64,000 nt of DNA from a virus. Below are positions 3,222 through 48,577 of this stretch, one piece after another. Under the pieces are notes generated by a model. The model made no database searches, was not told the DNA's origin, and was given only the letters and a program-made list of their open reading frames with translations. The DNA lies in the IMG/VR virus record IMGVR_UViG_3300036985_002246, positions 135,476 through 199,475 of that record; one strand, 5' to 3'. Positions within the stretch are counted from its first letter, which is position 1. Each line of letters starts with the position of its first letter. Both the position numbers and the translations under genes were made by a program.

Positions 3222-4814
3222 ATGAGCGGGCCGTCCCGACAGGCAGGACACGCTGCCCCGGCGGGCGAACTCTTCGGGGTTCGCACCGTCGTGGACGAGA
3301 AGCCTGCCAAGGGGATCGACGACCCTCTCGGCGACACGATCTACCACTCCCCAGGTGAGTCTCCGAAGTCTGACCGTGAGCGGGCCAAGCCGCAGCGGAC
3401 GGACACCAGGGAGAACCTCGACAAGGACCCGCCGGACCCGCCGGTCTTCAACACCCCCGGCCCCTCTGTTCCCATGCGGGACAGGGACACCCGGACGCCT
3501 GGCGACCCAGACCAGAGCGACAAGATCAAGGTCCGCACGCCCAGCGTCCCCGGTGAGGAGTACGGCCACCCCTACAAGGACAACGTCTACCCTCGCCGCA
3601 CCGACGGGGAGGGTGGTCCGAAGCCCTCACACACGGCCTCTGACTCCGACTTGAGTGAGGAGGAGGAGTTCCGGCTGGCTGGGCTCTTCCCCTCGTACTC
3701 GAAGCGGCAGCACAAGCAGCGGGGCCAGGCGAAGCGGTACTATCAGAAGTACTACCGGCGGCACAAGGGTCGGATCAAGACGAAGGCCAAGCGCCGGTAC
3801 AAGAAGGTCCGCAACAGTCCGAGCTTCAAGCGGCAGCGCAAGCTCCGGAACAACCCCAAGTACAAGAGCCGCTTTCGCAGGCTCCCGGCTGGGGGGGTTC
3901 ACTCGACGACTGAAATGGCGGACAGGCACCGCAAGCACGCCTCTGAGCCGCTCACCTTCTTCCACTCGGTCTTCGGGTGGGGGGACATTACGGACTTCTC
4001 TGAGGAGGGTGTGGTAGTCCACCTCGACGGCGAGGAGGAGGAGTGCCTCACGATCCCGATCTCCCTGTTCGTGAGGGGCGTCGTCTTCGACTCGGAGGAG
4101 GACACAGACTCCTTCTTCGACACTCTCGACGAGGTGTACGGAACACCTGACCCACGGGCCGTCGCTGCCACCTTCTACCGGGAGGTCTACACGCCCGGCT
4201 GGAACATGGACCCAGGGCAGGGGGCGCAGAATCTCGGCCTCCCAGGTCCGGAGAGCCCGATCGTGGACTCCCTCGAAGAGGAGCACGACGACCGGGCTCC
4301 AGGGCACAAGCTCGACATTCGCGAGTTCGACGGTGGCGGCGGCTCGGCCAAGGTCATTCCTTCGGGCCATGACTTCGCCAACAAGGAAGCCCACGGCCCC
4401 TCCGCCATTCGGGTCGCCAAGCGGCTCGCTGAAATGCTCGACGGCACCTCGAATGAGGTCCTTCAGCGGTCCACCTCGATCAAGCCGAAGGGGAAGCGGT
4501 TCGACCCGAAGAACTCAATGTTCACGTTCAGCGTTCCCGGCTCGGGTGGTGACTCCTACGTCGTGCGGATCAAGGCACTTCGCAAGGGCAACGTCACGAA
4601 GCTCTCGAAAATGGACCTGCTGGTGTCATGCTCGTGCGACTTCTGGCGGTGGCAGGGTCCAGAGCATTGGGCGAAGGTTGAGAGCTACCTCTACGGGAAG
4701 CCTCGTGGGACGGCCTCCAAGCCCGACATGAAGGACCCCTCCGGAGACCACCGTCTCTGCAAGCACGCAGCAGCCTGCCTTCGCTCGGTCAAGGGTTGGG
4801 AGCTTTCGAGGTAA
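3222..4814 (+). CDS. Multidomain protein with a very basic patch and a C-terminal SWIM-type zinc finger
   Basis: VSCSCDFW...HRLCKH fits the CxC...CxH SWIM signature; K/R-rich stretch around 3700-3890; ATG 3222 preferred over track start 3153. Confidence 0.75.
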   Translation: MSGPSRQAGHAAPAGELFGVRTVVDEKPAKGIDDPLGDTIYHSPGESPKSDRERAKPQRTDTRENLDKDPPDPPVFNTPGPSVPMRDRDTRTPGDPDQSDKIKVRTPSVPGEEYGHPYKDNVYPRRTDGEGGPKPSHTASDSDLSEEEEFRLAGLFPSYSKRQHKQRGQAKRYYQKYYRRHKGRIKTKAKRRYKKVRNSPSFKRQRKLRNNPKYKSRFRRLPAGGVHSTTEMADRHRKHASEPLTFFHSVFGWGDITDFSEEGVVVHLDGEEEECLTIPISLFVRGVVFDSEEDTDSFFDTLDEVYGTPDPRAVAATFYREVYTPGWNMDPGQGAQNLGLPGPESPIVDSLEEEHDDRAPGHKLDIREFDGGGGSAKVIPSGHDFANKEAHGPSAIRVAKRLAEMLDGTSNEVLQRSTSIKPKGKRFDPKNSMFTFSVPGSGGDSYVVRIKALRKGNVTKLSKMDLLVSCSCDFWRWQGPEHWAKVESYLYGKPRGTASKPDMKDPSGDHRLCKHAAACLRSVKGWELSR

Positions 4815-5240: not shown

Positions 5241-5999
5241 ATGACCCGCCAGCGAGACATTCCCTCCATTCAGTACCGGAGCCAGGGCCAGATCAATCTG
5301 ACCCTCCCGAAGGCTCCGGGGATCGACTTCTACGAGGTCCGTGGCGCGGCACGCCTGAATGACGCCTACGGGGCGGTCGCTGGCGTGCCTGGGTTCGGGG
5401 CGAACCCAATGTTCCGGATTCCCTGCGGAGGGGACTTCCGCTCGAAGGCGATCCAAATGAAGCGGCTCCCAGCCGTCGAGGAGTCGCAGCGAGGTCTGTC
5501 TCGGGCGGTCTATGACCCCGACGACTTCGCCACTCCGATCGTGGCAGGGGCGACCTACCTCCCGAGCGACGAGGTGACGGCGTACCTTCGTGTGGCCGCG
5601 TTCGACCGTGCGACCAACGCCTTCCTGCCCGAAGGTCCGATCCTGATTGTGCCACCCTACGACTTCTTCTCGACGAAGGAGCCGATCTTCACGCTCACAG
5701 GGGTTGCGCCCAATCTCGGTATCGGGGCGTTCCCCCCGAACCTCCCGGACACTCTGCCCCCGTCGGTCATGAACTTCCTGCTGCCCTCGTACAGCATGAC
5801 GCTCTCGATCGTGAACCTCGACCCTGTGGTCGGTGGGAAGCCTATCTTCGTGGGATTTCACCCAGGTATGCCTCCGACCGTCGTCATGCCTGGGGACGAG
5901 ATCGGGCTCACGGGCGCTGGTTCCCCTGAGTTCTTCATTGCCAGCCCGAACGGGAACCCCTGGTTCACAATCCGAGTCGCGGTCGCAAACAGCGCCTAA
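5241..5999 (+). CDS. Hypothetical protein, probable virion structural protein
   Basis: GGAG SD; Pro/beta-rich; structural context. Confidence 0.7.
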   Translation: MTRQRDIPSIQYRSQGQINLTLPKAPGIDFYEVRGAARLNDAYGAVAGVPGFGANPMFRIPCGGDFRSKAIQMKRLPAVEESQRGLSRAVYDPDDFATPIVAGATYLPSDEVTAYLRVAAFDRATNAFLPEGPILIVPPYDFFSTKEPIFTLTGVAPNLGIGAFPPNLPDTLPPSVMNFLLPSYSMTLSIVNLDPVVGGKPIFVGFHPGMPPTVVMPGDEIGLTGAGSPEFFIASPNGNPWFTIRVAVANSA

Positions 6000-6013
6000 C
6001 GCAGATTGGGTCC

Positions 6014-6041
6014 GGTAGAGGGTCTATCGTGGACCCTCTAC
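6014..6041 (+). terminator. Intergenic hairpin GTAGAGGGTC/GACCCTCTAC
   Basis: 10-bp perfect inverted repeat between the genes ending at 5999 and starting at 6113. Confidence 0.5.
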
Positions 6042-6112
6042 GGAGAGGGCTTCGGGCTCTCACATTTCACCCCCGTTCTCTGCGGCGGGTCCATTCTCAG
6101 GGAGACAAGACA

Positions 6113-6793
6113 ATGCCGTTCATCTGCAAGCGCCGTAGTGACATCCAGAATGGGATCCTCCAGGTCACTGACCTCTGGCCCAACGCCAGCCAGCGGAACC
6201 AGTCGATCGACCCGCAGCCCCAGGGTCCCCGCTACGTCAGCGCCCCGGTGACCAACACGGTCGTCCTGAGCAGCACGGGCGCGACCCAGCGGTACCTCGC
6301 GACGGCCCAGTCGGGCCTCTCGGCGTACCTCGTCGCCAACGTCGATGTGGCTGGCCCCGCGCTCACGCCCGCCCAGGCGGACGTGGCCTCGGCAGCCCTG
6401 ATCGCTGCCATGCAGGCAGGCGCGGTCCTCAACCTCGCGGCGATCAACGTGATCCTCAACGCGGCTGCGGCAGGTGCAACCCTCACGGGTGGTACCTCGA
6501 CCGGTGCGGTCATGGACGTGCTCCGGATCCTCTCGGGCGCGACCTACACAGTCCCGGCTGGCACGGTCGTTCAGGTCGTCGTCTCGACGTTCAACCCCCA
6601 GGCGACCCCTGCGGTGTGGAACGCGAACAACTTCGACTTCAACGCCTACCACGACATTCTCGTGAGCGACTCGTCGTTCTACATCTCGCTCGCTCAGGGC
6701 CAGATCAACGGCTTCTCGTCGGCTTCGTTCATGTACCTCGGGACGGCGGGCGCGGCGCTCGTCGTGTACGACAACACGGGTGCAGTCCTCTGA
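6113..6793 (+). CDS. Virion protein paralog 1 (MPFICKRRSDIQ...)
   Basis: GGAG SD at 6101, ATG 6113; strong similarity along its length to 6862..7911. Confidence 0.8.
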   Translation: MPFICKRRSDIQNGILQVTDLWPNASQRNQSIDPQPQGPRYVSAPVTNTVVLSSTGATQRYLATAQSGLSAYLVANVDVAGPALTPAQADVASAALIAAMQAGAVLNLAAINVILNAAAAGATLTGGTSTGAVMDVLRILSGATYTVPAGTVVQVVVSTFNPQATPAVWNANNFDFNAYHDILVSDSSFYISLAQGQINGFSSASFMYLGTAGAALVVYDNTGAVL

Positions 6794-15747: not shown

Positions 15748-16878
15748 GTGGCCGCCACGACCCCCAACACCGTGTTCGAGTACACCGTCGATTCCGACGG
15801 CATTTTCCCCAACAAGCGCGTGGACATTCCGCGCTTCACGGAGGAGATCCGCGCCAGCAGTATCTCCGTCGCGCTTCGTGGGATCACGATCGCCTCCGGC
15901 AACTGCGTGATCGAGTTCTCCGGCAACGCAAGCTCACCCCCAGGGCTGTCGTCGGCGGAGATTCTGGTCCTCGACACTCTGGTCACAAGCCACACAGGGG
16001 AGCCCCTCCCTGTGGGTGCTGCGACTGTGACCCTCTCCTCCCCGTCCAACCCGGAGAACAAGATCCCACTCTTTTCCCTCGCGGGACGCGAGGGCAGTGA
16101 GGTGATCTACGCCACGCACAACTACTGCGACAAGACCACCTGGTACTCGCAGAGCCTCCGGGCGGAGTCAGAGACCCTCGTGGACTCCGGGAATGGCCTC
16201 ACCTGGGGGAGCGCCCATACCCACTGGGTGGATATGTACTCCGGCAAGGTCATGGACGACGACGGGGTTCGCACAGACGTTTCCCACGGGTACTCCGTGG
16301 TCGTCACCGCGAACGGGGTCGAGAAGACCATGCGCGAGGTCTACGAGGACAACGGGGGTGACTACACCGTGGACTTCGCTGCGGGCACGGTCACGTTCTT
16401 CTCGGTCCCAACAGGCCCGGTGGTGGCGACCTACTCGTATGCGGACGGGTCTGCATGGATCCTCCGGGCCTCGCCCGGTAAGAACCTCGACGTTGAGTCC
16501 GCCGAGACGCAGTTCAGCACCGACGTGGAGATCACGGACTCGATCGTGTTCACCTTCCACGGGTATGCGGCTGTGTTCGCCCCAGCCGCCGTGGCCGCCA
16601 ACCTCTTGCAGCCCACCGACCTCGTGGAGATCGGGAGGGACACGTACAAGCGGTTCACCCAGATCATTGACAACGCGATCGGTTCCTTCCCTGTCGTCCC
16701 GGCCATTGGCGGTGCTGCCAGGGGCACACAGCACGCAGTCTACGGGTTCCCGTTCAGGTACGGGACGCTCCGACGGATCTACTCGGAGTACGGAATGGAA
16801 CTGCGGGTGTTCACGAAGCACGGTCGAGTGCTTCCCGGCGAGTACGCCACCACAACCTTCTACTGCGTGTCAAGGTGA
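15748..16878 (+). CDS. Putative virion protein with an Ig-like domain
   Basis: DYTVDFAAGTVTF motif; AGGAG SD; overlaps the patatin start. Confidence 0.65.
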   Translation: MAATTPNTVFEYTVDSDGIFPNKRVDIPRFTEEIRASSISVALRGITIASGNCVIEFSGNASSPPGLSSAEILVLDTLVTSHTGEPLPVGAATVTLSSPSNPENKIPLFSLAGREGSEVIYATHNYCDKTTWYSQSLRAESETLVDSGNGLTWGSAHTHWVDMYSGKVMDDDGVRTDVSHGYSVVVTANGVEKTMREVYEDNGGDYTVDFAAGTVTFFSVPTGPVVATYSYADGSAWILRASPGKNLDVESAETQFSTDVEITDSIVFTFHGYAAVFAPAAVAANLLQPTDLVEIGRDTYKRFTQIIDNAIGSFPVVPAIGGAARGTQHAVYGFPFRYGTLRRIYSEYGMELRVFTKHGRVLPGEYATTTFYCVSR

Positions 16879-17807
16879 AGGCCCTCTGTCTCAGTGGTGG
16901 GGGTGCTCGTGGTGCCTACCAGGTGGGCGCGATCAAGTACCTCATGGGTGAGCGTGGTGAGAACTACGACATTTTCACCGGCACCAGCGTCGGCGCTCTC
17001 AATGCGGCGTACCTTGCTCAGTTCCCTGTAGGGGAGGAGTTGGACGCGGCACACGGCCTGAGGGAACTGTGGCTCGGGCTTGACTCCTCGAAGGTCTGGC
17101 GGGAGTGGTACTGGGGGCTGCTGGGGCTCCTTCCAGTCGTTCTGCCGAAGTGGTTTGGTGGCAAGACCTCCGCCTACTCAACGGCTCCTCTGAGGGGATT
17201 GGTTGACCACCACCTCAGGCCGCGAGCGATCCTGTCTTCGGGGAAGAAGCTCCGAGTCGGGGCCGTGGACCTGGACTCAGGGGTCCGCAGGGTGTGGGAC
17301 GAGCAGGATCCTGCCCACCTACGGAAGGCTGTGCTCGCAAGCTCGTCCTTCCCGGTGTTCTTCGAGCCTGTCGAGATCAACGGACGCCTCTACACGGACG
17401 CCGGGGTGCGTGAGGTCAGCCCAATCGAGGACGCGATCAAGGCCGGGGCCAGGGAGATCCACCTGATCTCCACCAGACCCATGGAGGTCGTGGGTGCCTT
17501 CGACCGCAAGGGCGGCCTCTCGCTCGGGCGACGTGTGCTCGGGATCATGGAGTCTGAGATCGAGCGGTGGGACGTGAGGGCCGTCGAGTTGTACAACGCC
17601 CTCTACGAGGCGAGGCACCCGCTGGCCGTCGGCAAGTCCTACGTCACCCTGAAGGTGTTGCGCCCGGAGCAGGACCTGCTGGACAACGCCCTGGACTTCA
17701 ACACGACCGACATTATCGCCAACATGGGGCGCGGCTATGCCGACGCGAAGGCCATGAACTGGGGGTCCGGTCCTGCGGTACAGTCCGAGAGCAAGGTGCC
17801 CTCATGA
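16875..17807 (+). CDS. Patatin-like phospholipase
   Basis: SGGGARG oxyanion loop, GTSVG nucleophile elbow, DAG variant of the catalytic DGG. Confidence 0.92.
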   Translation: MKALCLSGGGARGAYQVGAIKYLMGERGENYDIFTGTSVGALNAAYLAQFPVGEELDAAHGLRELWLGLDSSKVWREWYWGLLGLLPVVLPKWFGGKTSAYSTAPLRGLVDHHLRPRAILSSGKKLRVGAVDLDSGVRRVWDEQDPAHLRKAVLASSSFPVFFEPVEINGRLYTDAGVREVSPIEDAIKAGAREIHLISTRPMEVVGAFDRKGGLSLGRRVLGIMESEIERWDVRAVELYNALYEARHPLAVGKSYVTLKVLRPEQDLLDNALDFNTTDIIANMGRGYADAKAMNWGSGPAVQSESKVPS

Positions 17808-19047: not shown

Positions 19048-19431
19048 ATGTCCAATCTCCGCTCGAAGCTGATCCGCCTGGCCCACCAGAAGCCAGAGCT
19101 TCGGGCTGACTTGCTGCCGCTGCTCAAGTCGGCGAGACCCACGTTCGTGGAGGCCAAGCAGACGATCCTCGACTACCTGGGGGAGCACGGCTGGAAGCTC
19201 TCGGCCCCTGGACTCAAGGTCATGCACGCCACGTCCAAGGACGGGAAGGTGCGCCTCTGGTTCAAGGCACAGGCGGTCTACTTCACCTACAGCACGGGTA
19301 GACACGACTTCGGGGAGGCACACTCCCTTCACAACGACATTCGCTCAATGACCCCAGAGGCGTTCGCAAAGGACGCCGACGAGACCGCCAGGGCTGACCT
19401 CTGGGTGGAACGGGACGCTGAGCGGGGGTGA
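19048..19431 (+). CDS. Tag-bearing small protein (MSNLRSKLIRLAHQKPELRADLLPLLK + unrelated domain)
   Basis: AGGAG SD; shared N-terminal peptide. Confidence 0.8.
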   Translation: MSNLRSKLIRLAHQKPELRADLLPLLKSARPTFVEAKQTILDYLGEHGWKLSAPGLKVMHATSKDGKVRLWFKAQAVYFTYSTGRHDFGEAHSLHNDIRSMTPEAFAKDADETARADLWVERDAERG

Positions 19432-19471: not shown

Positions 19472-19930
19472 ATGTCCGACCGAACACTTCGAGCCAAGCT
19501 GATCCGCCTCGCCCACGCCAACCCCGAGCTTCGCGCTCAGATCCTCCCGCTCCTCAAGGACGCGGGCTGCGAGAAGCTGCCTGAGGGCGGCATGAGGGAC
19601 AACTGCGAGGAGAAGGTCGAGGAGGGCAAGGAGTCTGCCTCCAAGAAGGCCGGTGGCAACGACGTGATCGAGTACGTCCTCCCCATGGACGACATGGCCA
19701 AGCTCTACCACACGCTGAAGAAGCAGGACGAGCAGTCAGCCAAGCTCCTCATGGAGGTCTACAACGTCCTGCGGGATAGGCTCAAGCTCTCCGACGGCGA
19801 GAACGAGGCCATGAGCCGGGTCCGTGGCATGGTCACTCGTGGGCAGAACTGGGACGCGGCCCTCCTCCGCAACAACGTCTTCAAGGCCGCCCACTCGCTC
19901 GGCATGAAGCTGCCGAGCTTCATGTTCTGA
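19472..19930 (+). CDS. Tag-bearing small protein (MSDRTLRAKLIRLAHANPELRAQILPLLK + helical domain)
   Basis: GGGAG SD; shared N-terminal peptide. Confidence 0.8.
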   Translation: MSDRTLRAKLIRLAHANPELRAQILPLLKDAGCEKLPEGGMRDNCEEKVEEGKESASKKAGGNDVIEYVLPMDDMAKLYHTLKKQDEQSAKLLMEVYNVLRDRLKLSDGENEAMSRVRGMVTRGQNWDAALLRNNVFKAAHSLGMKLPSFMF

Positions 19931-19943
19931 GCGGAGACACTCG

Positions 19944-20840
19944 GTGGCAGTCGCATTTCTACCAGGGACAGTGCTCGGGCAGGGAGATCTCGACATTTTC
20001 CTGACGAACTCGTCGTCGATTGCGACCAACGCCTTCGAGATCACCTACGCGATCTACTGGGTCAGCAACGTCTTCCCGTTCCCCGAGATCCTGATCGGGT
20101 CGCCGAACCGGATCCCGCTGAACCCGAACGTCGGCGAGTACTACGCCTCGCTCCAGGTGCCGACCAACGCGAGTATCGGCACCTACCACATTCGGTGGAA
20201 CTTCAAGCAGTTCGCCGGGAGCCCAGTCCAGCAGGTCGTGCAGGAGTGGGCCGTGGTCACGCCTGGGACGACAACCTCCCCGATCTACACCCAGTGCGTC
20301 ACGTCAATGATCGGGAAGCTGCGGCTCCTCCTCCGCGACCAGAACCCCGACAAGTTCTACCACTTCCGCCCACCGGAGGCGGAAGGCAACATTGGCGCGT
20401 ACAACCAGGTCTTCGGTCAGATCTGGGAGGACGCTGAGCTTCTGGAGTACCTGGAGCGCGGGCTCGACTGGTGGAATATGTTCCCACCGACGACGCCTGA
20501 CCTGGACACCCTCGACAAGCTCTGCGCCGAGAAGTCCGTGTGGCGGACAGCCGTTCTGTGGGAGGCGATTGCTCACGCCTGCTTCGCTGTGTCACTCAAC
20601 TGGGTGGCGGACGAGTTCGACTACTCAATCGGTGGTGTTTCCCTCTCGATCGAGAAGTCCTCGAAGTACGAGTCACTCAAGCAGAACGCCGAGTCTCAGT
20701 TCGACAAGGCCACCGAAGCCAAGGCTCGGACCGTGAAGTTCATTCGCGGCTTGCAGCAGCCCAAGTACGGGATCGGGATAAGGTCGGCCTTTGGACCACA
20801 GGTAGGTCGGGGTGTGCTCAGTCCGAGGAATTTCCTCTAA
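19944..20840 (+). CDS. Head-tail adaptor / neck protein (T4 gp13-like) with N-terminal Ig-like domain
   Basis: Helical domain WEDAELLEYLERGLDWWN and FDYSIGGVSLSI motif typical of adaptors; position ahead of the tail module. Confidence 0.6.
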   Translation: MAVAFLPGTVLGQGDLDIFLTNSSSIATNAFEITYAIYWVSNVFPFPEILIGSPNRIPLNPNVGEYYASLQVPTNASIGTYHIRWNFKQFAGSPVQQVVQEWAVVTPGTTTSPIYTQCVTSMIGKLRLLLRDQNPDKFYHFRPPEAEGNIGAYNQVFGQIWEDAELLEYLERGLDWWNMFPPTTPDLDTLDKLCAEKSVWRTAVLWEAIAHACFAVSLNWVADEFDYSIGGVSLSIEKSSKYESLKQNAESQFDKATEAKARTVKFIRGLQQPKYGIGIRSAFGPQVGRGVLSPRNFL

Positions 20841-20958: not shown

Positions 20959-22029
20959 ATGAAGTCCACGGCGACCGTCGAATGCCCGGCCTGCAAGAAG
21001 CTCATTCCGACCAAGGCGATCCCCAAACACACTTCGGGGTGTCACAGTTGGTCTACGGTCGTTGGGGTTCCCCCGTCCAAGTTCAACTGGGACGCCCACT
21101 GCAAGCGCGGCCCATACGCAGACGGGCTCATGGAGGGCACCAACTACGTTCGGTGCTTGGAGTGTGCGAAGAAGGGCTGGGACGCTCGTTTCAAGCGCAT
21201 GATGGACCACCTCAAGAAGGTCCACGGCTATGACGAGGCGACGTACCTTGCGAAGTACTCCAACGCGGCGGTGAGGATCGCCTCTACGGCCCAGAAGCGT
21301 GAGGGGACAGTCCAGGCTCGTTACGGGGTCGAGAACGTCTTTCAGGCCGACTCTGTGAAGCAGCAGAGCCGCAAGACAATGAGACAGCGGTACGGGGCCA
21401 GTCACCCACTTCAGGCTCTGAAGCCTCGCCAGAAGATGCTTGCAACCAATCTCACTCGCTACGGGTCAGCCAATCCGTTCGGCTCTGCTAAGATCAAAGC
21501 GAGGCTGAAGGCCACCAACATTCTCCGCTACGGGACCGAGTTCCCCAATCAGAACCGGGGGGTTATCGCTCGTCGTGTTGGGACGAACATGATCCGGTAC
21601 GGATCTCCCGTGCCACAGGGGTTTGGTAGGTCGGGAAAGACCTCCCTTGAGGATTGGGTAGACAAGCTCGCCCTAGCAGGCGTCGTCTACACCGGGGACC
21701 GTTCGTACTGGGTCCGGTGTACCGGACAGGACGGTTTTCCGAAGAACCGCAATCCCGACTTCGTGGTCTACTCGCCTGAGAACCTCGCCAGGGTGCTGGA
21801 AGGGGCACCTACCAATGAGGTCCGCACGAACAAGGTGATCGAGGTGCTGGGGGATTGGTGGCACCGGGAGGAGATCGTGGGCCTCCCCCGAGACGCCTAC
21901 GTTGCTTCCCGCATCGCGGAGTACGCCTCCGCCCGGATCTCCTGCCTCATCCTCTGGGAGTCCGAGGTCAAGAAGCAACCTGAGCTAGTCCTGGAGCGCC
22001 TCGCTGGGTTCCTCTCAGTAGGTCCGTGA
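20959..22029 (+). CDS. Free-standing homing-type endonuclease (PD-(D/E)XK / Vsr-like C-terminus, T-x-x-x-RYG repeats)
   Basis: CxxC fingers, five ~23-aa RYG repeats, NPDFVV...IEVLGDWWH...LILWE; atypical codon usage. Confidence 0.75.
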   Translation: MKSTATVECPACKKLIPTKAIPKHTSGCHSWSTVVGVPPSKFNWDAHCKRGPYADGLMEGTNYVRCLECAKKGWDARFKRMMDHLKKVHGYDEATYLAKYSNAAVRIASTAQKREGTVQARYGVENVFQADSVKQQSRKTMRQRYGASHPLQALKPRQKMLATNLTRYGSANPFGSAKIKARLKATNILRYGTEFPNQNRGVIARRVGTNMIRYGSPVPQGFGRSGKTSLEDWVDKLALAGVVYTGDRSYWVRCTGQDGFPKNRNPDFVVYSPENLARVLEGAPTNEVRTNKVIEVLGDWWHREEIVGLPRDAYVASRIAEYASARISCLILWESEVKKQPELVLERLAGFLSVGP

Positions 22030-22052
22030 GTTCTCTATAGGCCGGGGGTGAC

Positions 22053-23045
22053 ATGACCAATCTGCTTCGTCTGGTCGCAGTGCTGGGAGTGTCCCTCCTG
22101 TTCTCGTGCGGGCCGTCACCGGCTCCTCTTGTGGACGCAGGGTTCGACGCCGGGACGACCGACGGTGGGGTTCCTCCGACACGGCTCCGGGTGATCAACG
22201 GCTCCACCGAGACGCTGTGGATCTTCTACCAGGTCGGCTCGGGCGGCGGGTCGATCCCCACGGCTCACCAGGTCCAGTTGGCGGCTGGCGAGCACCTCGA
22301 CTACCCGATCCCCGACGAGGGCCTCGCGGCCACTCGGTTCTGGCCAGGCTACGGCTGTGACGACACCGGGAACAACTGCCAGATCGGGCAGTCAGGCGGC
22401 CCCGCAGACCAGGGCTTCACCTGCCCAAGCTACGGCTGCGCCCCGCCGATCGACTCGAAGTTCGAGGGCACCTTCGGCTGCCTTCCAAGCGTGCCGGTCG
22501 GCGACTGCCTGATCAACCCGTCGAGCCCGACGCATGACCCGCTCCCTGCCACGGACGGCTGGGACACGAGCATGGTTGACGGCTTCACGCTGCCCTTCCG
22601 GGTCGAGGTGTTCGGGGACTGTCCCGGCGGTCCGATCGCCAACACGATCGACTGCTCGGCGCTCCCCCTGTCCATGTGCCCGACCACGGAGGACCTCTCC
22701 ACGGACGGGGCATTCCCGGCGCTCATGTCGGAGAGCATGATGCTCACGAACCCCTCAAGCTCGCTGCCGGGTGGCTGCTACGCGGACTGCTCGAAGCTCA
22801 CCATGTCCCAGTGGTCTGGGCTCTCCTACGACCCCGCTTCGGCTGAGGCGCAAATGTACTGCTGCCCGACGCCGCCGATTGAGCCCCCGGCCTGCCGAGT
22901 CGGCCCAGTCGCGAGCACAGCCTACACCGACCTGGTTCACCGGACCTGCCCGCAGGTCTACGCCTACTCCTACGACGACGGGAGCGGGCTGTTCTCGTGC
23001 CCGGCGGGCGTCCACTACGAAGTCACCTTCTACGGACTACAATGA
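22053..23045 (+). CDS. Thaumatin-family (PR-5-like) lipoprotein
   Basis: Lipobox LLFSC; RFWPGYGC, DTSMVDGFTLP, CPQVYAYSYDD, YEVTFY; 16 Cys counted in the mature domain. Confidence 0.88.
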   Translation: MTNLLRLVAVLGVSLLFSCGPSPAPLVDAGFDAGTTDGGVPPTRLRVINGSTETLWIFYQVGSGGGSIPTAHQVQLAAGEHLDYPIPDEGLAATRFWPGYGCDDTGNNCQIGQSGGPADQGFTCPSYGCAPPIDSKFEGTFGCLPSVPVGDCLINPSSPTHDPLPATDGWDTSMVDGFTLPFRVEVFGDCPGGPIANTIDCSALPLSMCPTTEDLSTDGAFPALMSESMMLTNPSSSLPGGCYADCSKLTMSQWSGLSYDPASAEAQMYCCPTPPIEPPACRVGPVASTAYTDLVHRTCPQVYAYSYDDGSGLFSCPAGVHYEVTFYGLQ

Positions 23046-23338
23046 CCAATCTCCGCAGCAAACTGATCCGTCTCGCCCACTCGAATCCCGAGCTTCGGGC
23101 TGACCTCCTGCCGCTGCTCAAGACGGCTACCCCGCAGGAGTCCACCCCTGAGCAGCAGGCGGCTTCAGCAGAGGCCAAGCGTCTCTCGGAGATCGCGAAC
23201 GAGAAGGGGACGCGCTCCGCCCACGCCAAGGCGGCCTCTGCCCACAGGGCAGCCGCCGACCTCTACCCTTGGGGGCACCTCATGAAGAGCACACACAAGG
23301 GAATGGCGCAAATGCACAAGCAGAAGGCCGGGCGGTGA
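23042..23338 (+). CDS. Tag-bearing His/Ala-rich helical protein (MTNLRSKLIRLAHSNPELRADLLPLLK...)
   Basis: ATG 23042 overlaps the thaumatin stop; shared peptide. Confidence 0.8.
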   Translation: MTNLRSKLIRLAHSNPELRADLLPLLKTATPQESTPEQQAASAEAKRLSEIANEKGTRSAHAKAASAHRAAADLYPWGHLMKSTHKGMAQMHKQKAGR

Positions 23339-24363
23339 GCAGCGCGTACTTCGTAGCGACCCGCTTCCTGACTGCGAAGGTCTGGGTCAACCCGGAGAAG
23401 CTCCTCTCGGCCTACCAGGGGGAGTTGGTTGCCCTCAAGCGGGGGTTCCAGATTGGGTGGAGCAATCAGGGGCTGCGGATCTCTCTGTCCCATGTGCTCA
23501 ACGCAGCCAGGCCACTGGCTGACTGGGTGATCCAGACCCGCTCAATCCCCGCTGGCAAGTCCAAGGCGGTGGAGTTGGCCGCTCGCCTCGTGACGAATAT
23601 CGCCCGTGTGCCGACCGACGCCGTCGCCTGGTACGGGAAGAACTCTGGGAAGCTGGACCTTCTCCTGGAGGCTGCACAGTGGGGCGAGCGGGCGTCAACG
23701 GAGTCCGACGACAACCTGGAGGTCGCCACGGTTGGGCCGTTCAAGGTCCACAACACGATCGGGGCGAACGCCAAGCAACTCGGTGAGATCAAGGGGATCG
23801 TCGAGAACGCAGTCAGGTCACTGGGCACCACCCTCGACTTCAGGAAGGTGCTCTACGGCGACGTGTTCATTGTCGGCCAACTCAAGCAGTCAACCACGCT
23901 CGCTTGGTACTCGGTCACGGAAGACGACGTGTACGTCCGGTCCCTCATGAAGAAGGGGATCGACAGCCTCAAGAGCCTGACCCACGAGCTAGGGCACCGC
24001 TACTGGTTCAAGTTCTTCCCCACCGACGCAAAGCAGAGGGTCCTCAAGCTCTACTACGACCTGGGGAGCCAGCGCCCGGAACTGCCTGACCTGAAGGTGG
24101 GTGACCTCCTCCCAGTGGAGGTCCGTGGGGCGAAGGGTCCGATCACGATCGTCAGCAGGACAGGGCTCACCCTCGGGCTCTCCACAGGTGGTGCCGTGAG
24201 CATGATGGACGTGCAGAAGTTCCTTCGCAACAAGGCGGTCTTCCCGACCGTCTACGCGGCGAAGAACGTCGAAGAGTTCTTCGCCGAGTGCTTCGCGTTC
24301 TACACAATGGGGACGCTCAAGCCTGACCTGGCCGCTCAGTTCGAGGCCGCGATCAAGGGCTGA
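23335..24363 (+). CDS. Zincin-like metallopeptidase (HExxH)
   Basis: LTHELGHRYW and downstream YAAKNVEEFFAECFAFY, as in lethal-factor-like/MPTase domains; GTGA overlap. Confidence 0.8.
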   Translation: MSSAYFVATRFLTAKVWVNPEKLLSAYQGELVALKRGFQIGWSNQGLRISLSHVLNAARPLADWVIQTRSIPAGKSKAVELAARLVTNIARVPTDAVAWYGKNSGKLDLLLEAAQWGERASTESDDNLEVATVGPFKVHNTIGANAKQLGEIKGIVENAVRSLGTTLDFRKVLYGDVFIVGQLKQSTTLAWYSVTEDDVYVRSLMKKGIDSLKSLTHELGHRYWFKFFPTDAKQRVLKLYYDLGSQRPELPDLKVGDLLPVEVRGAKGPITIVSRTGLTLGLSTGGAVSMMDVQKFLRNKAVFPTVYAAKNVEEFFAECFAFYTMGTLKPDLAAQFEAAIKG

Positions 24364-24568: not shown

Positions 24569-24753
24569 CGCGACCCCTTGTGGGCGAGGTCAAACGCCTC
24601 GTCTTCCAGCTTCGTGATTCGGGCTCGATTGACCTCGGCGCTGATACCCCCACCGTAGAAGGTCTTGAGCCAGGTGTGGAGGTACTGGTAGCCCCTGTCG
24701 GAGTTGTCTGCCGACGAGTACGGCACGAGCTTGTGCCTAGCAGGCGTGCTCAC
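24565..24753 (-). CDS. Small hypothetical protein (MSTPARHKLVPY...)
   Basis: GTG 24753 overlaps the end of the upstream gene; track start 24945 is likely too long. Confidence 0.5.
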   Translation of the reverse strand: MSTPARHKLVPYSSADNSDRGYQYLHTWLKTFYGGGISAEVNRARITKLEDEAFDLAHKGSR

Positions 24754-25255
24754 GCAGTAGCTCGTCGAGCTTTGCGATCCGCTGGTCGAGGGGGACCCTC
24801 TTGTCCTTGAGGAAGGCGACCACTCCAGCACGCTCGTCCCTGCGCTTCTGGACGCCCGCCTTGCGGTCAGCCTCAGCCTTCCGACTGGCCTCACGCTCCC
24901 GGTAGAAGTCCTCCATGACTTGGGTGTGGTCCACGCCTGCCGCACGGCAGACCTCGTGAATGAGCGCGTGGAAGGTGCGTGCCTCGTCCTTGCTTCCGAT
25001 CAGCAGGTAGCTCCACGCCTGGGAGCCGAAGATTGGGGCGTCGAACCGCTCCTTCAGTGGTGTCTTGTCGTCCTTCTCGACCCACTCGCACTCCCGACCG
25101 GCCTTCACGAGCGCCTTGGCCAGTCCTTCGGTTGCCGGGCCGTAGGAAGGCACCCAGGTCAGGAGGCTCACGATCGCCTTGCGGATACTGGAGTGGCAGT
25201 GGTGCTCGACCACGTCTCCGCAGTCAGGACAGATCACTCGGATTTCCTTGCTCAC
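24737..25255 (-). CDS. Hypothetical protein with CxxC...HxH N-terminus
   Basis: AGGAG SD; GTGA overlap with the upstream gene. Confidence 0.7.
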   Translation of the reverse strand: MSKEIRVICPDCGDVVEHHCHSSIRKAIVSLLTWVPSYGPATEGLAKALVKAGRECEWVEKDDKTPLKERFDAPIFGSQAWSYLLIGSKDEARTFHALIHEVCRAAGVDHTQVMEDFYREREASRKAEADRKAGVQKRRDERAGVVAFLKDKRVPLDQRIAKLDELLREHAC

Positions 25256-38674: not shown

Positions 38675-39295
38675 GTGGGGGAGGTCGAGATCACCTGTAT
38701 TGGGGACACAGCCCATGTCCCCGACCTCGGCCTGAGAATGACCCGTGGGTCGAAGGTCCACACGAGCCTCTCCGCGATTGCCAAGTCGCGTGACCTCGAA
38801 GACGCCAAGAGCCGTGGGCTCGTCTCGGTGAGGATTCTGAGGGCACAGACGATCCGAAGGGACAGCCTACCCATGTCAGCACCCCCGGAGTCCTCCTCCG
38901 CGAACCAGAGAACGATCGCCAGGTCCGCTCACCAGCCCACCACTGAGGGGGGTGACAACCACTCGACAGACCTGCTGAGGGAACTCCTCTTCGAGATCCG
39001 TGGCCTTCGAGAAGACCTCCGGAAGCGCCAACCGGAACCTCAGACTGCGCAACTGGCGATAGCAATCGGGAACGCTGTCCGGGGTGCCTTGAGCGGCCTT
39101 CAGTTTGGGTCAGGCGGGGGAAGCACAGCCTCCTTCGCCTCGGAGCCAGAAGAGCGGTTCATTCCTCGTGGTATCGTCTCAGAGTCGGCGAAGGCTGACA
39201 TTGAGATCACCCACTCGGTGACTCCAAGTACCTCAGGTCTGGACGACGCGAGCGGGGCTCTTCGGAACGCCCGCCGCCAGACGAAAGAAAGATGA
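38675..39295 (+). CDS. Hypothetical protein
   Basis: GTG just after the upstream stop; ATGA overlap with the actin-like gene. Confidence 0.65.
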   Translation: MGEVEITCIGDTAHVPDLGLRMTRGSKVHTSLSAIAKSRDLEDAKSRGLVSVRILRAQTIRRDSLPMSAPPESSSANQRTIARSAHQPTTEGGDNHSTDLLRELLFEIRGLREDLRKRQPEPQTAQLAIAIGNAVRGALSGLQFGSGGGSTASFASEPEERFIPRGIVSESAKADIEITHSVTPSTSGLDDASGALRNARRQTKER

Positions 39296-40311
39296 CCGGA
39301 ACCATGAGCGGGAAATCCGAAACAGTCCGTGGTGTGGGCCTCGACGTAGGTACCATGAATTTCGTCTCCGCCCGGCGGACCTCGAAGGGCGTCGAGACTC
39401 GCCGAATGAGGGACGCATTCCTCGATCTCCCGCCTGAGTCGAAGAAAATGCTCAAGCTGTCGGGGGTCTCCTATGTGGACCGGGAGGACGAGATCCTGAT
39501 CCTCGGCGACGCAGCCCTCGACATGGCCAACGTCTTCGGTCGTGAGGCGCGGCGTCCGCTCTCGGGTGGTCTTGTCTCCTCCACGGAGGCGGACTCCCTG
39601 GAGGTGCTGGGGCTCCTCGTCCGGAACGTCCTCGGGCCGCCGGAGGAGCCAGGCGAGCACTGCTACTTCTCGGTCCCAGCGGCCCCGGTCGATCTGGTGG
39701 GCCGCGACGTGGTCTACCACCGTGGGATCTTCGACCGCATTGTCTCTGAGTGCGGGTACACGCCCCACTCGGGGAACGAGGCCATGGCGATCGTCTACGC
39801 CGAGACGGCGAAGGACGGCTTCTCGGGGATCGCCCTCTCGTTCGGCTCGGGCATGACCAACGTCGCGCTCTCCGTGAGCACGGTCGAGGGGTTGTCCTTC
39901 TCGGTCGGGCGGGGTGGGGACTGGATCGACGCAGGCGCGGCGAAGTCGGTCGGGTCCACGCAGGCGCGAATGTGCTCGGTCAAGGAGAAGGGGATCGACC
40001 TCAACAACCCGACCTCCAGGGAGCAGGAGGCGCTCGCCTTCTACTACAAGAACCTCGTCGAGTACGTCCTCGACCAGATCGCCCTTCAGTTCAAGGCCGT
40101 CGAAGGCCGGTTCTCGCTCCCGAAGCCGATCCCAATCGTCGTCTCCGGGGGCACCTCCCTGGCCGGTGGGTTCCTGGAGTTCTTCATCGGGGTCTTCGAG
40201 AAGAAGCGCAAGCGGTTCCCGATCCAGGTGAGTGAGATCCGAGCCGCTAGCGACCCGCTCAACTCGGTCGCTCACGGCCTCCTCGTTCAGGCTCTCCAAG
40301 AGTACGAGTGA
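39292..40311 (+). CDS. Actin-fold (ASKHA) ATPase, MreB/ParM/MamK-like
   Basis: Phosphate-1 GLDVGT, connect-1 NEAMA, phosphate-2 SFGSGMTN, adenosine VSGGTS, connect-2 DPLNSVAHG. Confidence 0.88.
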   Translation: MTGTMSGKSETVRGVGLDVGTMNFVSARRTSKGVETRRMRDAFLDLPPESKKMLKLSGVSYVDREDEILILGDAALDMANVFGREARRPLSGGLVSSTEADSLEVLGLLVRNVLGPPEEPGEHCYFSVPAAPVDLVGRDVVYHRGIFDRIVSECGYTPHSGNEAMAIVYAETAKDGFSGIALSFGSGMTNVALSVSTVEGLSFSVGRGGDWIDAGAAKSVGSTQARMCSVKEKGIDLNNPTSREQEALAFYYKNLVEYVLDQIALQFKAVEGRFSLPKPIPIVVSGGTSLAGGFLEFFIGVFEKKRKRFPIQVSEIRAASDPLNSVAHGLLVQALQEYE

Positions 40312-45700: not shown

Positions 45701-48042
45701 ACAACGGTCCGATCGCTCGTCGCTACACGGTGGCCACCACCTCGGGTCGTCTCCCCTACGACCGGATCATGCTCCGCAACCGAATCTTCCCCGGCGGGAA
45801 CTCGGTGTCCTACGCCTCGGTCCTTCCGCAGACGGGGATCACCCTCCAGGGTGGCACCGGAGCGGTGAAGGCTGGTCTTCTCAACGGCGAGACGGCTGAG
45901 GCGGTCTTCGGGGCGAACGTGAAGGCCCCGACGCTGGTCGCCTACACCGGGTGGACGGACGGTCAGGTCGCCGCTGCAACCTTCGGCGACGCCCGCGACG
46001 GCCAGGCGAACGTGATCTTCTTCGACGGGACGGACCCGTCGAACCCCGCGAACAACCTCCTGACCTTCACGGCAGGCGGCGGGCTCGTCACCGTGGTCTT
46101 CACGGCCTCGGCTCTTGGCACGAGCACAGCCCTTGGGCCGGTGACGGTCGCGGGCTCAGTGCTCGGTCAGATCAACGCCGCGATCGTGGCGGCTGGCCTC
46201 GCTTCGACCGTCCAGGTTCTCCAGGAGGGCTCCGCTATCCGGCTCGTCGGCGGCGGTGTCGGCCCGGCTGCAACCCTGGTGATCGGAGCGGGTAGCTCGA
46301 ACAACACCCTCGGCTTCGCTGAGGGCGACTCGGCGGCCCCGGTCCCCGTCTCCACCCGCCAGTTCGTGTCGGCTCTCATGGCCCACTCCCAGGCGGCTGG
46401 TGCGTTCACGACGGCCATGCTCGCCTACGCGGCACCCAACGTGTTCTTTTTCGCAGGTCGGGCACTCGCCGGTCTCCAGAAGGACTCGACGGGCAACGTC
46501 TTCCTGTACTTCCAGAGCCTGACGCTCGGAGTCGGGTCGAGTATCGACTTCAACAACGCCACCTCGCTCAATGCTCTCGTGACCGGGACCATGCTCCTGA
46601 TCACGGCGGCGGACGGGTCGTCCGGCGAGGCTGCGATCAGCGGCTTCTTCGTCACCTCCTCGAACCCCGGCCTCGGCTCGGGCTCGTCGAACACCTCGGT
46701 GTTCAACTCGGGTGTCGGCCAGGACGGTGTGGTCGGTCAGACCTACGTGGACGACGTGACGGGCCTGACCTTCACGATCCTCCCACGCACGGGCGGGCTC
46801 GCCTACCCGACGGGCGCGAACGCGACCCTCACCTTCCGGGTGAGCAAGACGTTCACGACCGACGGCAACATTCCGACCCTCGCCGTCCCCGGCCTCGAAC
46901 TCACGGTCACGAACACCTCCTCGGTGTTCGTGGGTGACTCGGCGTTCGTGGAGACCTTCAAGAAGACCGGGTCGGAGCCCACGAACGGCGAGGTCTACTA
47001 CGTCAGCTACAGCTACATGAAGCAGGACTTCACCCCGAAGTTCTTCTCGCGGCTGTCGGAGGTCGTGGCGGAGTACGGACCGGTGAGCCCGGACAACCCG
47101 CTCTCGCTCGCGGCGTACCTGGCCTTCCAGAACGGCTCGTCGATCATTGCGACCTACCAGGTGCTCAAGCAGCCTGGTTCGTCCCAGGCGAGCGAGCAGT
47201 CGTACCTCGACGCCCTCACAGCCCTGGAGGGTGCGTCCCTCCCCGGCAATATCTCGCCGACGGTCCTCGTGTTCCTGACCCCGGCGACGTACAACCTGGC
47301 GAAGTTCACCGCGATCCACTGCGACGTGCAGTCCTCGATCCGCTACCGGTCGGAGCGCACCGCAATCTTCGGCTACGCCTCGGGCACTCAGCCGTCGCAG
47401 GCTGGTGCGCTCGCGGAGTCGGTCGGCGCAACGCGAGTTCGCTTCGTCTACCCAGACATTGCGACGCTCACCCTCACCGACGTTCTCGGCACGTCCAAGA
47501 CGTACCTCGTGGACGGTCGGTACGTCGCAGGGGCTGTCGCCTCTTCGACCACCGCCCCGAGTATCGACTCGGCAACCCCGTGGACGGGTCGGCTGCTCAG
47601 CGGCTTCACGAGCCTCGCCCGGACGCTCGACGCAGTGGAGGCCAACCAGGTCGCCTCGCGTGGTGTGACCGTGATCGAGGAGCGGCTCCCCTACATGAGG
47701 ATCCGCCACGGCCTCACCTCCGACATGAGCAACACGCTCACCAAGCTGCCGACGGTCATTCAGATCGCCGACGATATGCAGCGTCGCGCTCGTGCGGTCC
47801 TCGACCAGTTCGTCGGGGTCAAGTTCCTCCCGCAGATCCTCGGGCAGATCGAGGGCCAACTCAGCGAAATGTTCAAGCGCGCTGTGCAGGGCCAGATCAT
47901 CACGAGCTTCACCGGAGTCTCCGTGGTGCTCGACCCCGCCGACCCCACGGCAGTCCTCGTCGAGGCGTTCTACATTCCCGTCTTCCCGCTGCTCTACATT
48001 CAGTTGACCTTCCGCGTCTCGGCGCAGTCGGCGACGGTCTGA
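42736..48042 (+). CDS. Contractile tail sheath protein, unusually large (1768 aa)
   Basis: N-terminal PGVY motif; C-terminal IRHGLT...VEAFYIPVFPLLYIQLTF sheath signature; followed by the tube gene. Confidence 0.92.
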   Translation: MPTLLQGGYAPPGVYTQTFFGVPPTPTPIPDRLPVFIGTGIEILSRSNLPVVRGSSSTIDQQVVDEDESGRAVVNVSPSGVVTLGDFDGSLTKFQVRNLPIVSGDGTGTPAVDTSAVSCRINGFPVVVLGLDAAKGLVEIAVAPAATDIVRCTYYFDRSDTLTTDNVSDQVTQDAAVLDGQAGQNFAFSAGANDVFSISVDGLAFVNVTMPSSAPSVSGAVVAATINGAAGIGSLVATTYVNNLGQVCLRLSADKSIVIGTGTSNTTLGFTPNTATSRNRIFYTFQGPIVDGTGGGITTTDPSRIVVLVDGVQVIPTAVNGSARSFTLPFAPAMGSTVTVRYFFNTWQDTFDYLANIGVTSISRVALTPDGSTAGTFIQGVSYVLKDDVIVWGTAALISAATHTEGGATLGNSQIQAMLVDNQVFLAPCSPTVNNTGVVSVESRTVFQLPYQPTTGNGRGNPLGSALYQTVSNGRIDLPTTRPDLITAYWGFGVQDAINRGSVTVLKVDSTTSQITLGTSVPEGASVYASFYYNTLVDMANIGSSHAYTLTCVTAGPGGLGTYSLTNGSGTSLFGVSLTGKGTDLTTVEIVFPSGSEFFPDARVEGAVPVEETATIEFATSDVTPARFTNLGPGPYYTIDNVSDHLRVTFDGVAANTGLAAGVDLSSPTGGTRAGAFAHLLGEEIKYTAASGETTYDLTSGVDDALNLLVDGVPLAATTGTVAGATAATFVSAINAAAVAVGNEPYLSSAGAFTGYTVALNEYDQLTLHYTGGTSGASGNQVITLTPGLYVSVGALVTQINTQLATVNATGGLLGSVTASALASGQIRFTLTLGKASDLLTFGGIPLAAETVTIDGVVYTFVAVPALPGDVLIGLSATASLQNLVAAITLGAGAGTLYGTGTTLHPTVTAAMGVGATMLATAKLSGIAGNLIAVASGVTLGVWATPTLLGGDDAGYLEFVTNAAPARDFAILAGIDTDAATNGNQTKLYNGPIARRYTVATTSGRLPYDRIMLRNRIFPGGNSVSYASVLPQTGITLQGGTGAVKAGLLNGETAEAVFGANVKAPTLVAYTGWTDGQVAAATFGDARDGQANVIFFDGTDPSNPANNLLTFTAGGGLVTVVFTASALGTSTALGPVTVAGSVLGQINAAIVAAGLASTVQVLQEGSAIRLVGGGVGPAATLVIGAGSSNNTLGFAEGDSAAPVPVSTRQFVSALMAHSQAAGAFTTAMLAYAAPNVFFFAGRALAGLQKDSTGNVFLYFQSLTLGVGSSIDFNNATSLNALVTGTMLLITAADGSSGEAAISGFFVTSSNPGLGSGSSNTSVFNSGVGQDGVVGQTYVDDVTGLTFTILPRTGGLAYPTGANATLTFRVSKTFTTDGNIPTLAVPGLELTVTNTSSVFVGDSAFVETFKKTGSEPTNGEVYYVSYSYMKQDFTPKFFSRLSEVVAEYGPVSPDNPLSLAAYLAFQNGSSIIATYQVLKQPGSSQASEQSYLDALTALEGASLPGNISPTVLVFLTPATYNLAKFTAIHCDVQSSIRYRSERTAIFGYASGTQPSQAGALAESVGATRVRFVYPDIATLTLTDVLGTSKTYLVDGRYVAGAVASSTTAPSIDSATPWTGRLLSGFTSLARTLDAVEANQVASRGVTVIEERLPYMRIRHGLTSDMSNTLTKLPTVIQIADDMQRRARAVLDQFVGVKFLPQILGQIEGQLSEMFKRAVQGQIITSFTGVSVVLDPADPTAVLVEAFYIPVFPLLYIQLTFRVSAQSATV

Positions 48043-48049
48043 ACGGGCC

Positions 48050-48550
48050 ATGGACGACTCGAAGCTCGGCGGTTCGGACGGTAACTACATGACGAAGCAG
48101 AACCTCTGGGTTCTGCATGAGACAAGTAGCCTGCTCAACGAACTGATCCCTGAGGGTGAGCCGCTGCCCGATTGGGTCGAGGCTCATATCAACTCCGCCG
48201 CCACGCATATGCAGGACGTGGCGGCGTGGGCGGCCTCCGAAGCCAAGCTCAGTATCAAGACCTCTGGGTACGGGCGTGGCTACGGTCAGGTGCTTCGAGG
48301 CGACCCTCGGTGGCTCACGGCGAAGTACCCTGGCACCGACTCCAAGGGCAACCCCTTCAAGAAGGGGGAGGAAGTGCTCTACTGGCCCTCGACCAAGACC
48401 TTCATGACTGGAAAGGACGCCCAGGACGCCTGGCGCAAGTTCCAATCCGAGAAGGGCGACGAAGAGGGCAACCCCTACGCTCGAAGTGCCTCCAGGGTCG
48501 CCTCCAAGTACCTGGGCACCCGTTTCCGCCCCTATAGCCCGCCACGGTAA
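48050..48550 (+). CDS. Two-module small protein between sheath and tube
   Basis: LPDWVEAHINSA module, GDPRWLTAKY module, SRVASKYL motif. Confidence 0.75.
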   Translation: MDDSKLGGSDGNYMTKQNLWVLHETSSLLNELIPEGEPLPDWVEAHINSAATHMQDVAAWAASEAKLSIKTSGYGRGYGQVLRGDPRWLTAKYPGTDSKGNPFKKGEEVLYWPSTKTFMTGKDAQDAWRKFQSEKGDEEGNPYARSASRVASKYLGTRFRPYSPPR

Positions 48551-48577
48551 GGACGGCCCTCGTCCCCACGGAGATCC

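Follow-up and report, generated by a model that had tools for sequence, protein, structure and literature searches.

The stretch of DNA analysed here (the window, 64,000 nucleotides) comes from a giant uncultured phage and forms the end of a 199,475-bp IMG/VR virus record, IMGVR_UViG_3300036985_002246, the completeness of which is estimated at 45%. Its plus strand carries an open reading frame (ORF) for a thaumatin-fold lipoprotein. With moderate confidence, the product is read as a phage-resident, exported and lipid-anchored protein of the glycoside hydrolase family 152 (GH152) type that acts on glucan at the surface of the infected cell. The gene is a sporadic, mobile accessory gene and does not belong to the core equipment of the phage. 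The thaumatin family is known and a bacterial sub-family has already been annotated by NCBI; the phage setting is the new part. The gene and the segments of its product were delimited as follows.

22044-22049, plus strand: G-rich Shine-Dalgarno-like run just 5' of the ATG, read directly in the sequence.
22053-23045, plus strand: ORF of the thaumatin-fold lipoprotein, 330 aa.
22053-22109, plus strand: signal peptide ending in the lipobox L-F-S-C19, assigned from the sequence and from the Cys of phage-clade relatives.
22110-22175, plus strand: flexible tether rich in Pro/Asp/Ala/Gly (DAG-type), residues 20-41, assigned from model disorder and sequence.
22176-23045, plus strand: Thaumatin/GH152-fold domain, residues 42-330, with the stop codon; cleft residues R95, E138, D171, D176 and D308/D309.

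An earlier note, made from the letters of this DNA, had assigned the protein to the thaumatin family, and this assignment was borne out by profile searches and by the predicted structure. The Pfam Thaumatin profile (PF00314) was matched with 59.8 bits (cut-off 27.4; E = 3.9e-16), over profile positions 93-207 only. A profile built from 62 relatives was compared with the PDB and matched 26 thaumatin-like chains, the best of them at 7e-18. The AlphaFold model obtained with the alignment of the relatives had a predicted local distance difference test score (pLDDT) of 91 and a predicted template modelling score (pTM) of 0.85, and the protein has the three-domain thaumatin fold. Compared by eye, the protein does not appear to fit the PROSITE thaumatin signature.

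The acidic cleft of the family is described by the REDDD motif (PMC3048497). By profile alignment, R95, E138, D171, D176 and D308/D309 were aligned with the REDDD residues of 2ahn, 3zs3, 4l2j and 4jru. R95, E138, D171, D176 and D308 are invariant in the 40 sequences of the phage clade described below, and D309 is Asp in 37 of the 40. In the alignment of this clade, the strands that bear the cleft are the least variable segments of the protein. The most variable segments are the tether and two surface insertions, at residues 231-240 and 251-260. The thaumatin family is GH152 of the CAZy classification, in which two members have been characterised, a beta-1,3-glucanase and a beta-1,3-1,4-glucanase, and the REDDD cleft houses the presumed catalytic pair (PMC11800479). 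Homologues that are 46-52% identical over the domain are fused to carbohydrate-binding modules (CBM56, CBM6/CBM35), to GH16/SKN1 or to ricin lectin domains. CBM56 is a beta-1,3-glucan-binding module. Because of these fusions, the ligand is probably a beta-glucan; specificity for beta-glucan and catalysis are both predicted from sequence.

A family hallmark is a set of sixteen conserved Cys that form eight disulfides (PMC3048497). The window protein has 17 Cys, namely that of the lipobox and 16 in the mature part. The count of 16 given in the earlier note therefore stands, but these Cys probably do not form the canonical eight pairs: the clamp between the first and the last Cys (NGC…FYC) is lost, its residues being replaced by S51 and G328, and C143 and C152 sit in an insertion that is gapped against the plant proteins in the profile alignment. 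In the phage clade, both clamp Cys are present in 22 sequences and neither is present in 17; in a wider set these numbers are 49 and 12. Mixed cases were not found (zero). The fact that both Cys are always present or absent together across relatives is good evidence that they form a pair. The disulfide scheme of the window protein is thus most likely made of seven canonical pairs and one family-specific pair.

The N-terminus reads M-T-N-L-L-R, with a single positive charge (R6), followed by a hydrophobic core and L-F-S-C19, and residues 4-13 form a helix in the predicted model (signal peptide). This lipobox, already noticed in the earlier note, is accepted by a pattern of the PROSITE PS51257 type, with an atypical Phe at position -2. 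The aligned Cys is kept in 39 of the 40 phage-clade relatives, 17 of which fail the strict lipobox pattern. Lipidation of Cys19 by the export and lipoprotein pathway is predicted from these features. The DAG linker was also recovered: the tether contains the segment VDAGFDAGTTDGG, and its residues 21-35 are disordered in the model (pLDDT <50). Tethers of a similar DAG-rich kind are also found in Myxococcota homologues. Acidic residues predominate strongly in the mature part (33 D+E, 8 K+R).

The following mechanism is proposed. The signal peptide would send the protein through the Sec pathway and Cys19 would be lipidated. On a flexible DAG-rich tether, the disulfide-rich domain (~290 residues) would stay attached to the envelope of the infected cell, where its acidic cleft, which is intact, would bind, and probably cut, a glucan of the beta-1,3 type. 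The target would most likely be a polymer borne by the infected cell itself or surrounding it, i.e. a surface or matrix glycan or a receptor, and the gain for the phage could lie in release, re-adsorption or superinfection. A virion-borne depolymerase (tail spike or fibre) was considered and rejected: the protein has a single domain with its own signal peptide and lipobox, and no further domain was found in Pfam and PHROG searches.

The gene lies on phage DNA. The same contig (G000) encodes a large terminase (phrog_2, 1e-29), a portal protein (phrog_16240, 5.5e-36), a ribonucleotide reductase, a UvsX-like recombinase and a helicase. The terminase and portal genes precede the thaumatin gene by 34-38 kb, and another 41 kb separate the thaumatin gene from the contig end. 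The G+C content of the thaumatin gene at third codon positions (GC3) is 0.86, inside the range of the neighbouring genes. The same junctions, with syntenic flanks, were found in two independent contigs (L084 and L094), and terminase homologues are also present in G002 and G003, both of which carry a thaumatin gene. With terminase, portal, recurring junctions and matching GC3, misassembled host flanks are excluded for practical purposes, and the gene is phage-borne as had been claimed. A promoter and terminator scan of the region 17.5-26.5 kb gave nothing above chance.

The distribution of the gene was determined among related phages. Seventy IMG/VR contigs have a terminase 54-90% identical to that of this phage. 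The thaumatin gene was found in 0 of the 23 terminase-related contigs of at least 100 kb that were searched (5 of them with an estimated completeness of at least 90%); applied to four known carriers as a positive control, this search recovered the gene from all four. The position of the gene in carrier contigs was judged relative to homologues of the genes of this phage:

At the site used in the window: L084 and L094.
Beside a conserved head-region gene: L096, L103 and G002.
Beside an RNA-ligase homologue: L101 and L102.
Beside a homologue of G000 47896-48582: L100, L106 and L107.
At 5 kb from fibre-like genes: L117.

In a second set of contigs (L089, L093, L099 and L105), blocks are held in common with G001 instead, and the positions vary again.

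Exchange of the gene was seen most directly between L084 and L094. Their DNA is 97.8-99.6% identical on both sides of the locus and their thaumatin genes are 72% identical. Synonymous divergence (dS) was calculated for the thaumatin gene and for three genes of the locus, as follows.

L084 against L094: left-flank gene (19944-20840), 0.00; peptidase-like gene, 0.08; 172-aa minus-strand ORF (24737-25255), 0.00; thaumatin gene, 1.25.
Window against L084: left-flank gene, 0.68; peptidase-like gene, 0.64; 172-aa minus-strand ORF (24737-25255), 0.36; thaumatin gene, 0.24.

The contrast in dS between flanks and thaumatin gene is reversed from one comparison to the other: L084 and L094 have old thaumatin alleles within nearly identical flanks, and the window and L084 show the opposite. 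This indicates that alleles are exchanged among co-occurring phage backbones. Directly upstream of the L084 thaumatin gene, 58 nt from the 3' end of the left-flank gene are duplicated (L084:4616-4673 against L094:9353-9410, 86% identity), in what looks like a recombination scar at the border of the cassette. The ratio of non-synonymous to synonymous divergence (dN/dS) was 0.028 against L084 and ~0.2 in comparisons with more distant alleles, for which dS is saturated, and positive selection was not seen. These ratios indicate strong purifying selection on the gene in the phage lineage.

The G001 record (IMG/VR, 297,749 bp; L152-L166) carries a thaumatin copy 74% identical to that of the window and is classed as a 90%-complete virus. 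Neither a terminase nor a capsid gene was detected in it with phrog_2, PF03237, PF05065, the G000 terminase protein or tblastn of the G000 proteome; its viral status is that given by IMG/VR alone, and it was not used as support. G001 encodes NAMPT, an RtcB-type ligase, a large helicase, an IS605-type OrfB/TnpB and other transposases. It has 11 accessory genes in common with this phage (39-73% identity).

The origin of the gene was examined by comparison with bacterial relatives. Scoring against every cluster representative gave 450 clusters (50% identity) with E <1e-3. A narrow peptide pattern was found in 67 species genomes, mostly from Polyangia (Nannocystis, Sorangium, Byssovorax, Chondromyces, Minicystis, Kofleriaceae and Sandaracinaceae) and also from Acidobacteriota and some Gamma- and Alphaproteobacteria. 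The earlier description of bacterial homologues as sparse is thus out of date, and their frequency in Polyangia corrects the idea of their rarity. The best named matches were in Nannocystis (61%) and in a Thermoanaerobaculia metagenome-assembled genome (MAG, 60%).

In a tree of 92 rows, the window protein was placed in a 44-row clade (Shimodaira-Hasegawa-like approximate likelihood ratio test, SH-aLRT, 85; inner 30-row clade, 96). This clade contains all viral-contig copies but one and no named bacterial genome. In a tree of 38 rows, the 13 copies classified as phage or viral formed one clade with no named bacterium inside (ultrafast bootstrap, UFBoot, 94; SH-aLRT 89); 11 of these copies have homologues of the genes of this phage in their flanks and 2 were included by IMG/VR viral classification alone. 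The Nannocystaceae formed a separate clade in this tree (100/100). Forcing the window protein and its 98% twin to group with the Nannocystaceae cost 55.7 log-likelihood units (p = 4e-7 in the approximately unbiased, AU, test, for a group that was named after the tree had been seen). The G003 copy (39% identity) grouped with alphaproteobacterial sequences on long branches in the 92-row tree, which suggests a separate acquisition. Because of the separate clade, the best named match of only 61% and the rejection by the AU test, a recent uptake from a predatory host, the source inferred in the earlier note, is not supported. The comparisons point instead to long residence of the gene in phages. 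A myxobacterial host is plausible because of the nearest relatives, the DAG-type tethers common to Myxococcota copies and a GC content of 63-65%. A host search with the patatin and actin-like genes of this phage across species genomes gave only stray matches on MAG contigs.

A target at the host surface is favoured because the protein is tethered, the locus is variable and accessory, and alleles are exchanged between near-identical phages. According to one alternative, which follows the earlier note and was considered unlikely, a myxobacterium-like infected cell displays the protein as a glucanase directed against fungal, oomycete or algal beta-glucan, and this predation or nutrition sustains the supply of nutrients in a long infection. 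The closest named relatives in Nannocystis and other Polyangia and the intact cleft agree with this alternative, as do the free-living homologues, whose CBM56, GH16 and ricin modules are typical of secreted degraders of external glucan. However, the gene is not a recent host copy and a tethered protein would reach external particles poorly. The swap to a 71%-identical allele in otherwise identical backbones is also unexpected for a nutritional enzyme of the housekeeping type. Such a swap pattern fits genes of cell-surface or inter-phage conflict better, and a host-surface target is therefore preferred over nutrition.

A second alternative was given the same low weight. The anchored domain would act as a lectin that masks a surface glycan or glycoprotein receptor, and would thereby prevent superinfection or keep progeny from being lost on debris. 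Superinfection exclusion is a classic role of phage lipoproteins, as exemplified by the T5 lipoprotein Llp, which acts on FhuA. The variable accessory locus, with alleles swapped between near-identical phages as in arms-race genes, and the peak of variability in the surface insertions 231-240 and 251-260 are consistent with a masking role. Against it, all presumed catalytic residues of the cleft are invariant, the overall dN/dS of ~0.2 gives no sign of positive selection, and there is no known receptor. An osmotin-like, membrane-active protein that aids lysis by damaging the outer membrane, or that kills competitors or grazers after release, was judged very improbable. Misassembled host DNA on a phage contig, or a decaying passenger gene, was given practically no chance, although this is a metagenome assembly of incomplete length: the gene is flanked by 157 kb and 41 kb of phage DNA, the junctions recur in L084 and L094, GC3 fits the neighbours and the frame is intact under a dN/dS of 0.028.

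Several points weigh against the preferred reading, that of an exported GH152-type protein acting on glucan at the surface of the infected cell. The Phe at lipobox position -2 and the failure of 17 of the 40 clade members with the strict pattern weaken the predicted anchor, though 39 of the 40 keep the Cys. Clade support is below maximal and, as stated above, the AU group was chosen with the tree in view. The neighbourhoods of the bacterial copies (in Nannocystis, Thermoanaerobaculia, Marinicella, Nisaea and Thiohalocapsa) consist of unrelated housekeeping genes and gave no functional hint. The two characterised GH152 enzymes are both eukaryotic. Many thaumatin-like proteins (TLPs) with an intact REDDD motif bind without cutting, or act on membranes. 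The suspected hosts are not known to bear a beta-1,3-glucan.

A more specific version of the surface reading is offered tentatively and was considered doubtful. Huge phages of Myxococcota-like hosts would keep private, exchangeable alleles of thaumatin-fold lipoproteins that cut or mask a receptor or matrix polymer of the beta-glucan type, and the swapping of alleles would reflect an arms race between co-infecting phages. If this were true, a receptor-destroying or exclusion system would have arisen from a fold that had until now been met only in the antifungal defence of eukaryotes. The exchange between co-occurring phages suggests that some huge phages manipulate glucan at the host surface. 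GH152 is among the least characterised glycoside hydrolase families, and a phage-resident, lipid-anchored branch under strong purifying selection would add a compact set of new GH152 proteins for characterisation. Practical use depends first on knowing a host or an activity.

The genes around the thaumatin gene are listed below.

19944-20840, plus strand: conserved 298-aa backbone gene at the left edge of the variable locus; L084 and L094 have copies 93% identical to it and identical to each other (dS 0).
20959-22029, plus strand: free-standing homing endonuclease (DUF7487) directly upstream; PF24308 at 4.6e-13, phrog_3339 and phrog_12131 at ~3e-13.
23042-23338, plus strand: 98-aa gene with an N-terminal tag motif; its ATG overlaps the thaumatin stop codon (ATGA, 23042-23045).
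23335-24363, plus strand: HELGH zinc-peptidase-like gene; its GTG overlaps the stop codon of the tag gene (GTGA, 23335-23338).

The stop codon of the homing endonuclease gene (22029) is separated from the thaumatin ATG (22053) by 23 nt only. At this place, L084 and L094 have no such gene. A recent mobile insertion is a possible origin, and the endonuclease might assist in mobilising the adjacent thaumatin cassette. The HELGH peptidase-like protein had no match in Pfam, PHROGs or NCBIfam, and its gene is conserved (68% identity) beside the variable locus in L084 and L094. Translational coupling of the thaumatin gene to the tag gene and the peptidase gene, proposed in the earlier note, agrees with the overlaps ATGA and GTGA in the window, but a general linkage of these genes does not hold. 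In L094, the peptidase gene directly follows the thaumatin gene and there is no tag gene. In L084, two different tag-bearing genes surround the thaumatin gene (4148-4516 and 5708-6640, the latter of ~310 aa). In the other carrier phages, where the thaumatin gene is found elsewhere, neither the tag gene nor the peptidase gene lies beside it.

The tag is a motif of ~23 aa (LRSKLIRLAH..PELR..LLPLL) that heads at least six otherwise unrelated proteins in the 199-kb contig and ends a seventh. Its copies are located as follows.

Window 19057-19125, 19487-19555 and 23051-23119: tag copies.
G000 8000, 63925 and 64934: tag copies.
G000 135233-136054: C-terminal variant.

For the thaumatin gene, a conserved partner was considered and rejected: the small gene found beside several thaumatin copies encodes a common CxxC zinc-ribbon (FmdB-like) protein.

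Three other genes of the window were recorded. A patatin-like phospholipase (PF01734, 1e-33) is encoded at 16875-17807, within a run of large structural-looking genes. The 817-aa product of 30644-33097 matches phrog_2426 and has a von Willebrand A domain (PF13519/PF00092) at its N-terminus. The product of 39292-40311 gave a full-length match to Pfam Volactin (PF25216, 1.6e-71), an actin-like family named after an archaeal protein and found here in a phage. Volactin copies 65-71% identical to it are present on short contigs that had been assigned to Thermoplasmata and Actinomycetota MAGs; these are probably phage contigs placed in the wrong bins.

The thaumatin-fold lipoprotein was compared with deposited phage proteins and with known systems. 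No tblastn match was found in 50,697 deposited phage genomes, and no PHROG family and no NCBIfam match was obtained for the thaumatin-like protein. Among the predicted viral structures of BFVD, there was no significant match to a phage protein, only to thaumatins of eukaryotic viruses. Full-text literature searches brought up no publication on thaumatin-like proteins of phages or myxobacteria. Phage morons and exclusion lipoproteins, such as T5 Llp and the Cor proteins of phi80 and N15, resemble the window protein in being phage-encoded lipoproteins of variable accessory loci, with a patchy distribution and horizontal exchange. Llp and Cor are, however, small and without an enzyme fold, unlike the window protein. 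The BFVD TLPs of eukaryotic viruses (Tupanvirus, Feldmannia virus and closteroviruses) are likewise virus-encoded proteins with a thaumatin fold, but their hosts are eukaryotes and their sequences, at 12-18% identity, are unrelated in detail. Membership in GH64, the laminaripentaose-producing beta-1,3-glucanases (3gd0, 5h9x and 7vtk), was rejected: these enzymes have 360-410 residues, are only 11-15% identical and gave no sequence-level match.

Bacterial thaumatin family proteins are known from Nannocystis, other Polyangia, Acidobacteriota and Gammaproteobacteria, with a solved structure from Amycolatopsis rifamycinica (7p22), and the phage copies form a clade separate from them. Many bacterial copies have carbohydrate-binding or GH16 modules instead of, or besides, an anchor, and ordinary signal peptides are found in the non-myxobacterial ones. 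In eukaryotes, thaumatin-like proteins are textbook examples of defence proteins. Also among the closest known proteins are the long-type plant and fungal TLPs (PR-5; PF00314; GH152), represented by Pru av 2 (2ahn), Mal d 2 (3zs3), osmotin (1pcv) and a Puccinia TLP (7p23). Compared with these, the phage domain is ~80 residues longer and contains insertions, and Pfam sees only the C-terminal half of the profile in it. The NGC...FYC disulfide is absent from the sub-clade of the window protein, and C143 and C152 lie in an insertion. Finally, the window protein differs from the plant and fungal TLPs in being lipobox-anchored and encoded by a phage.
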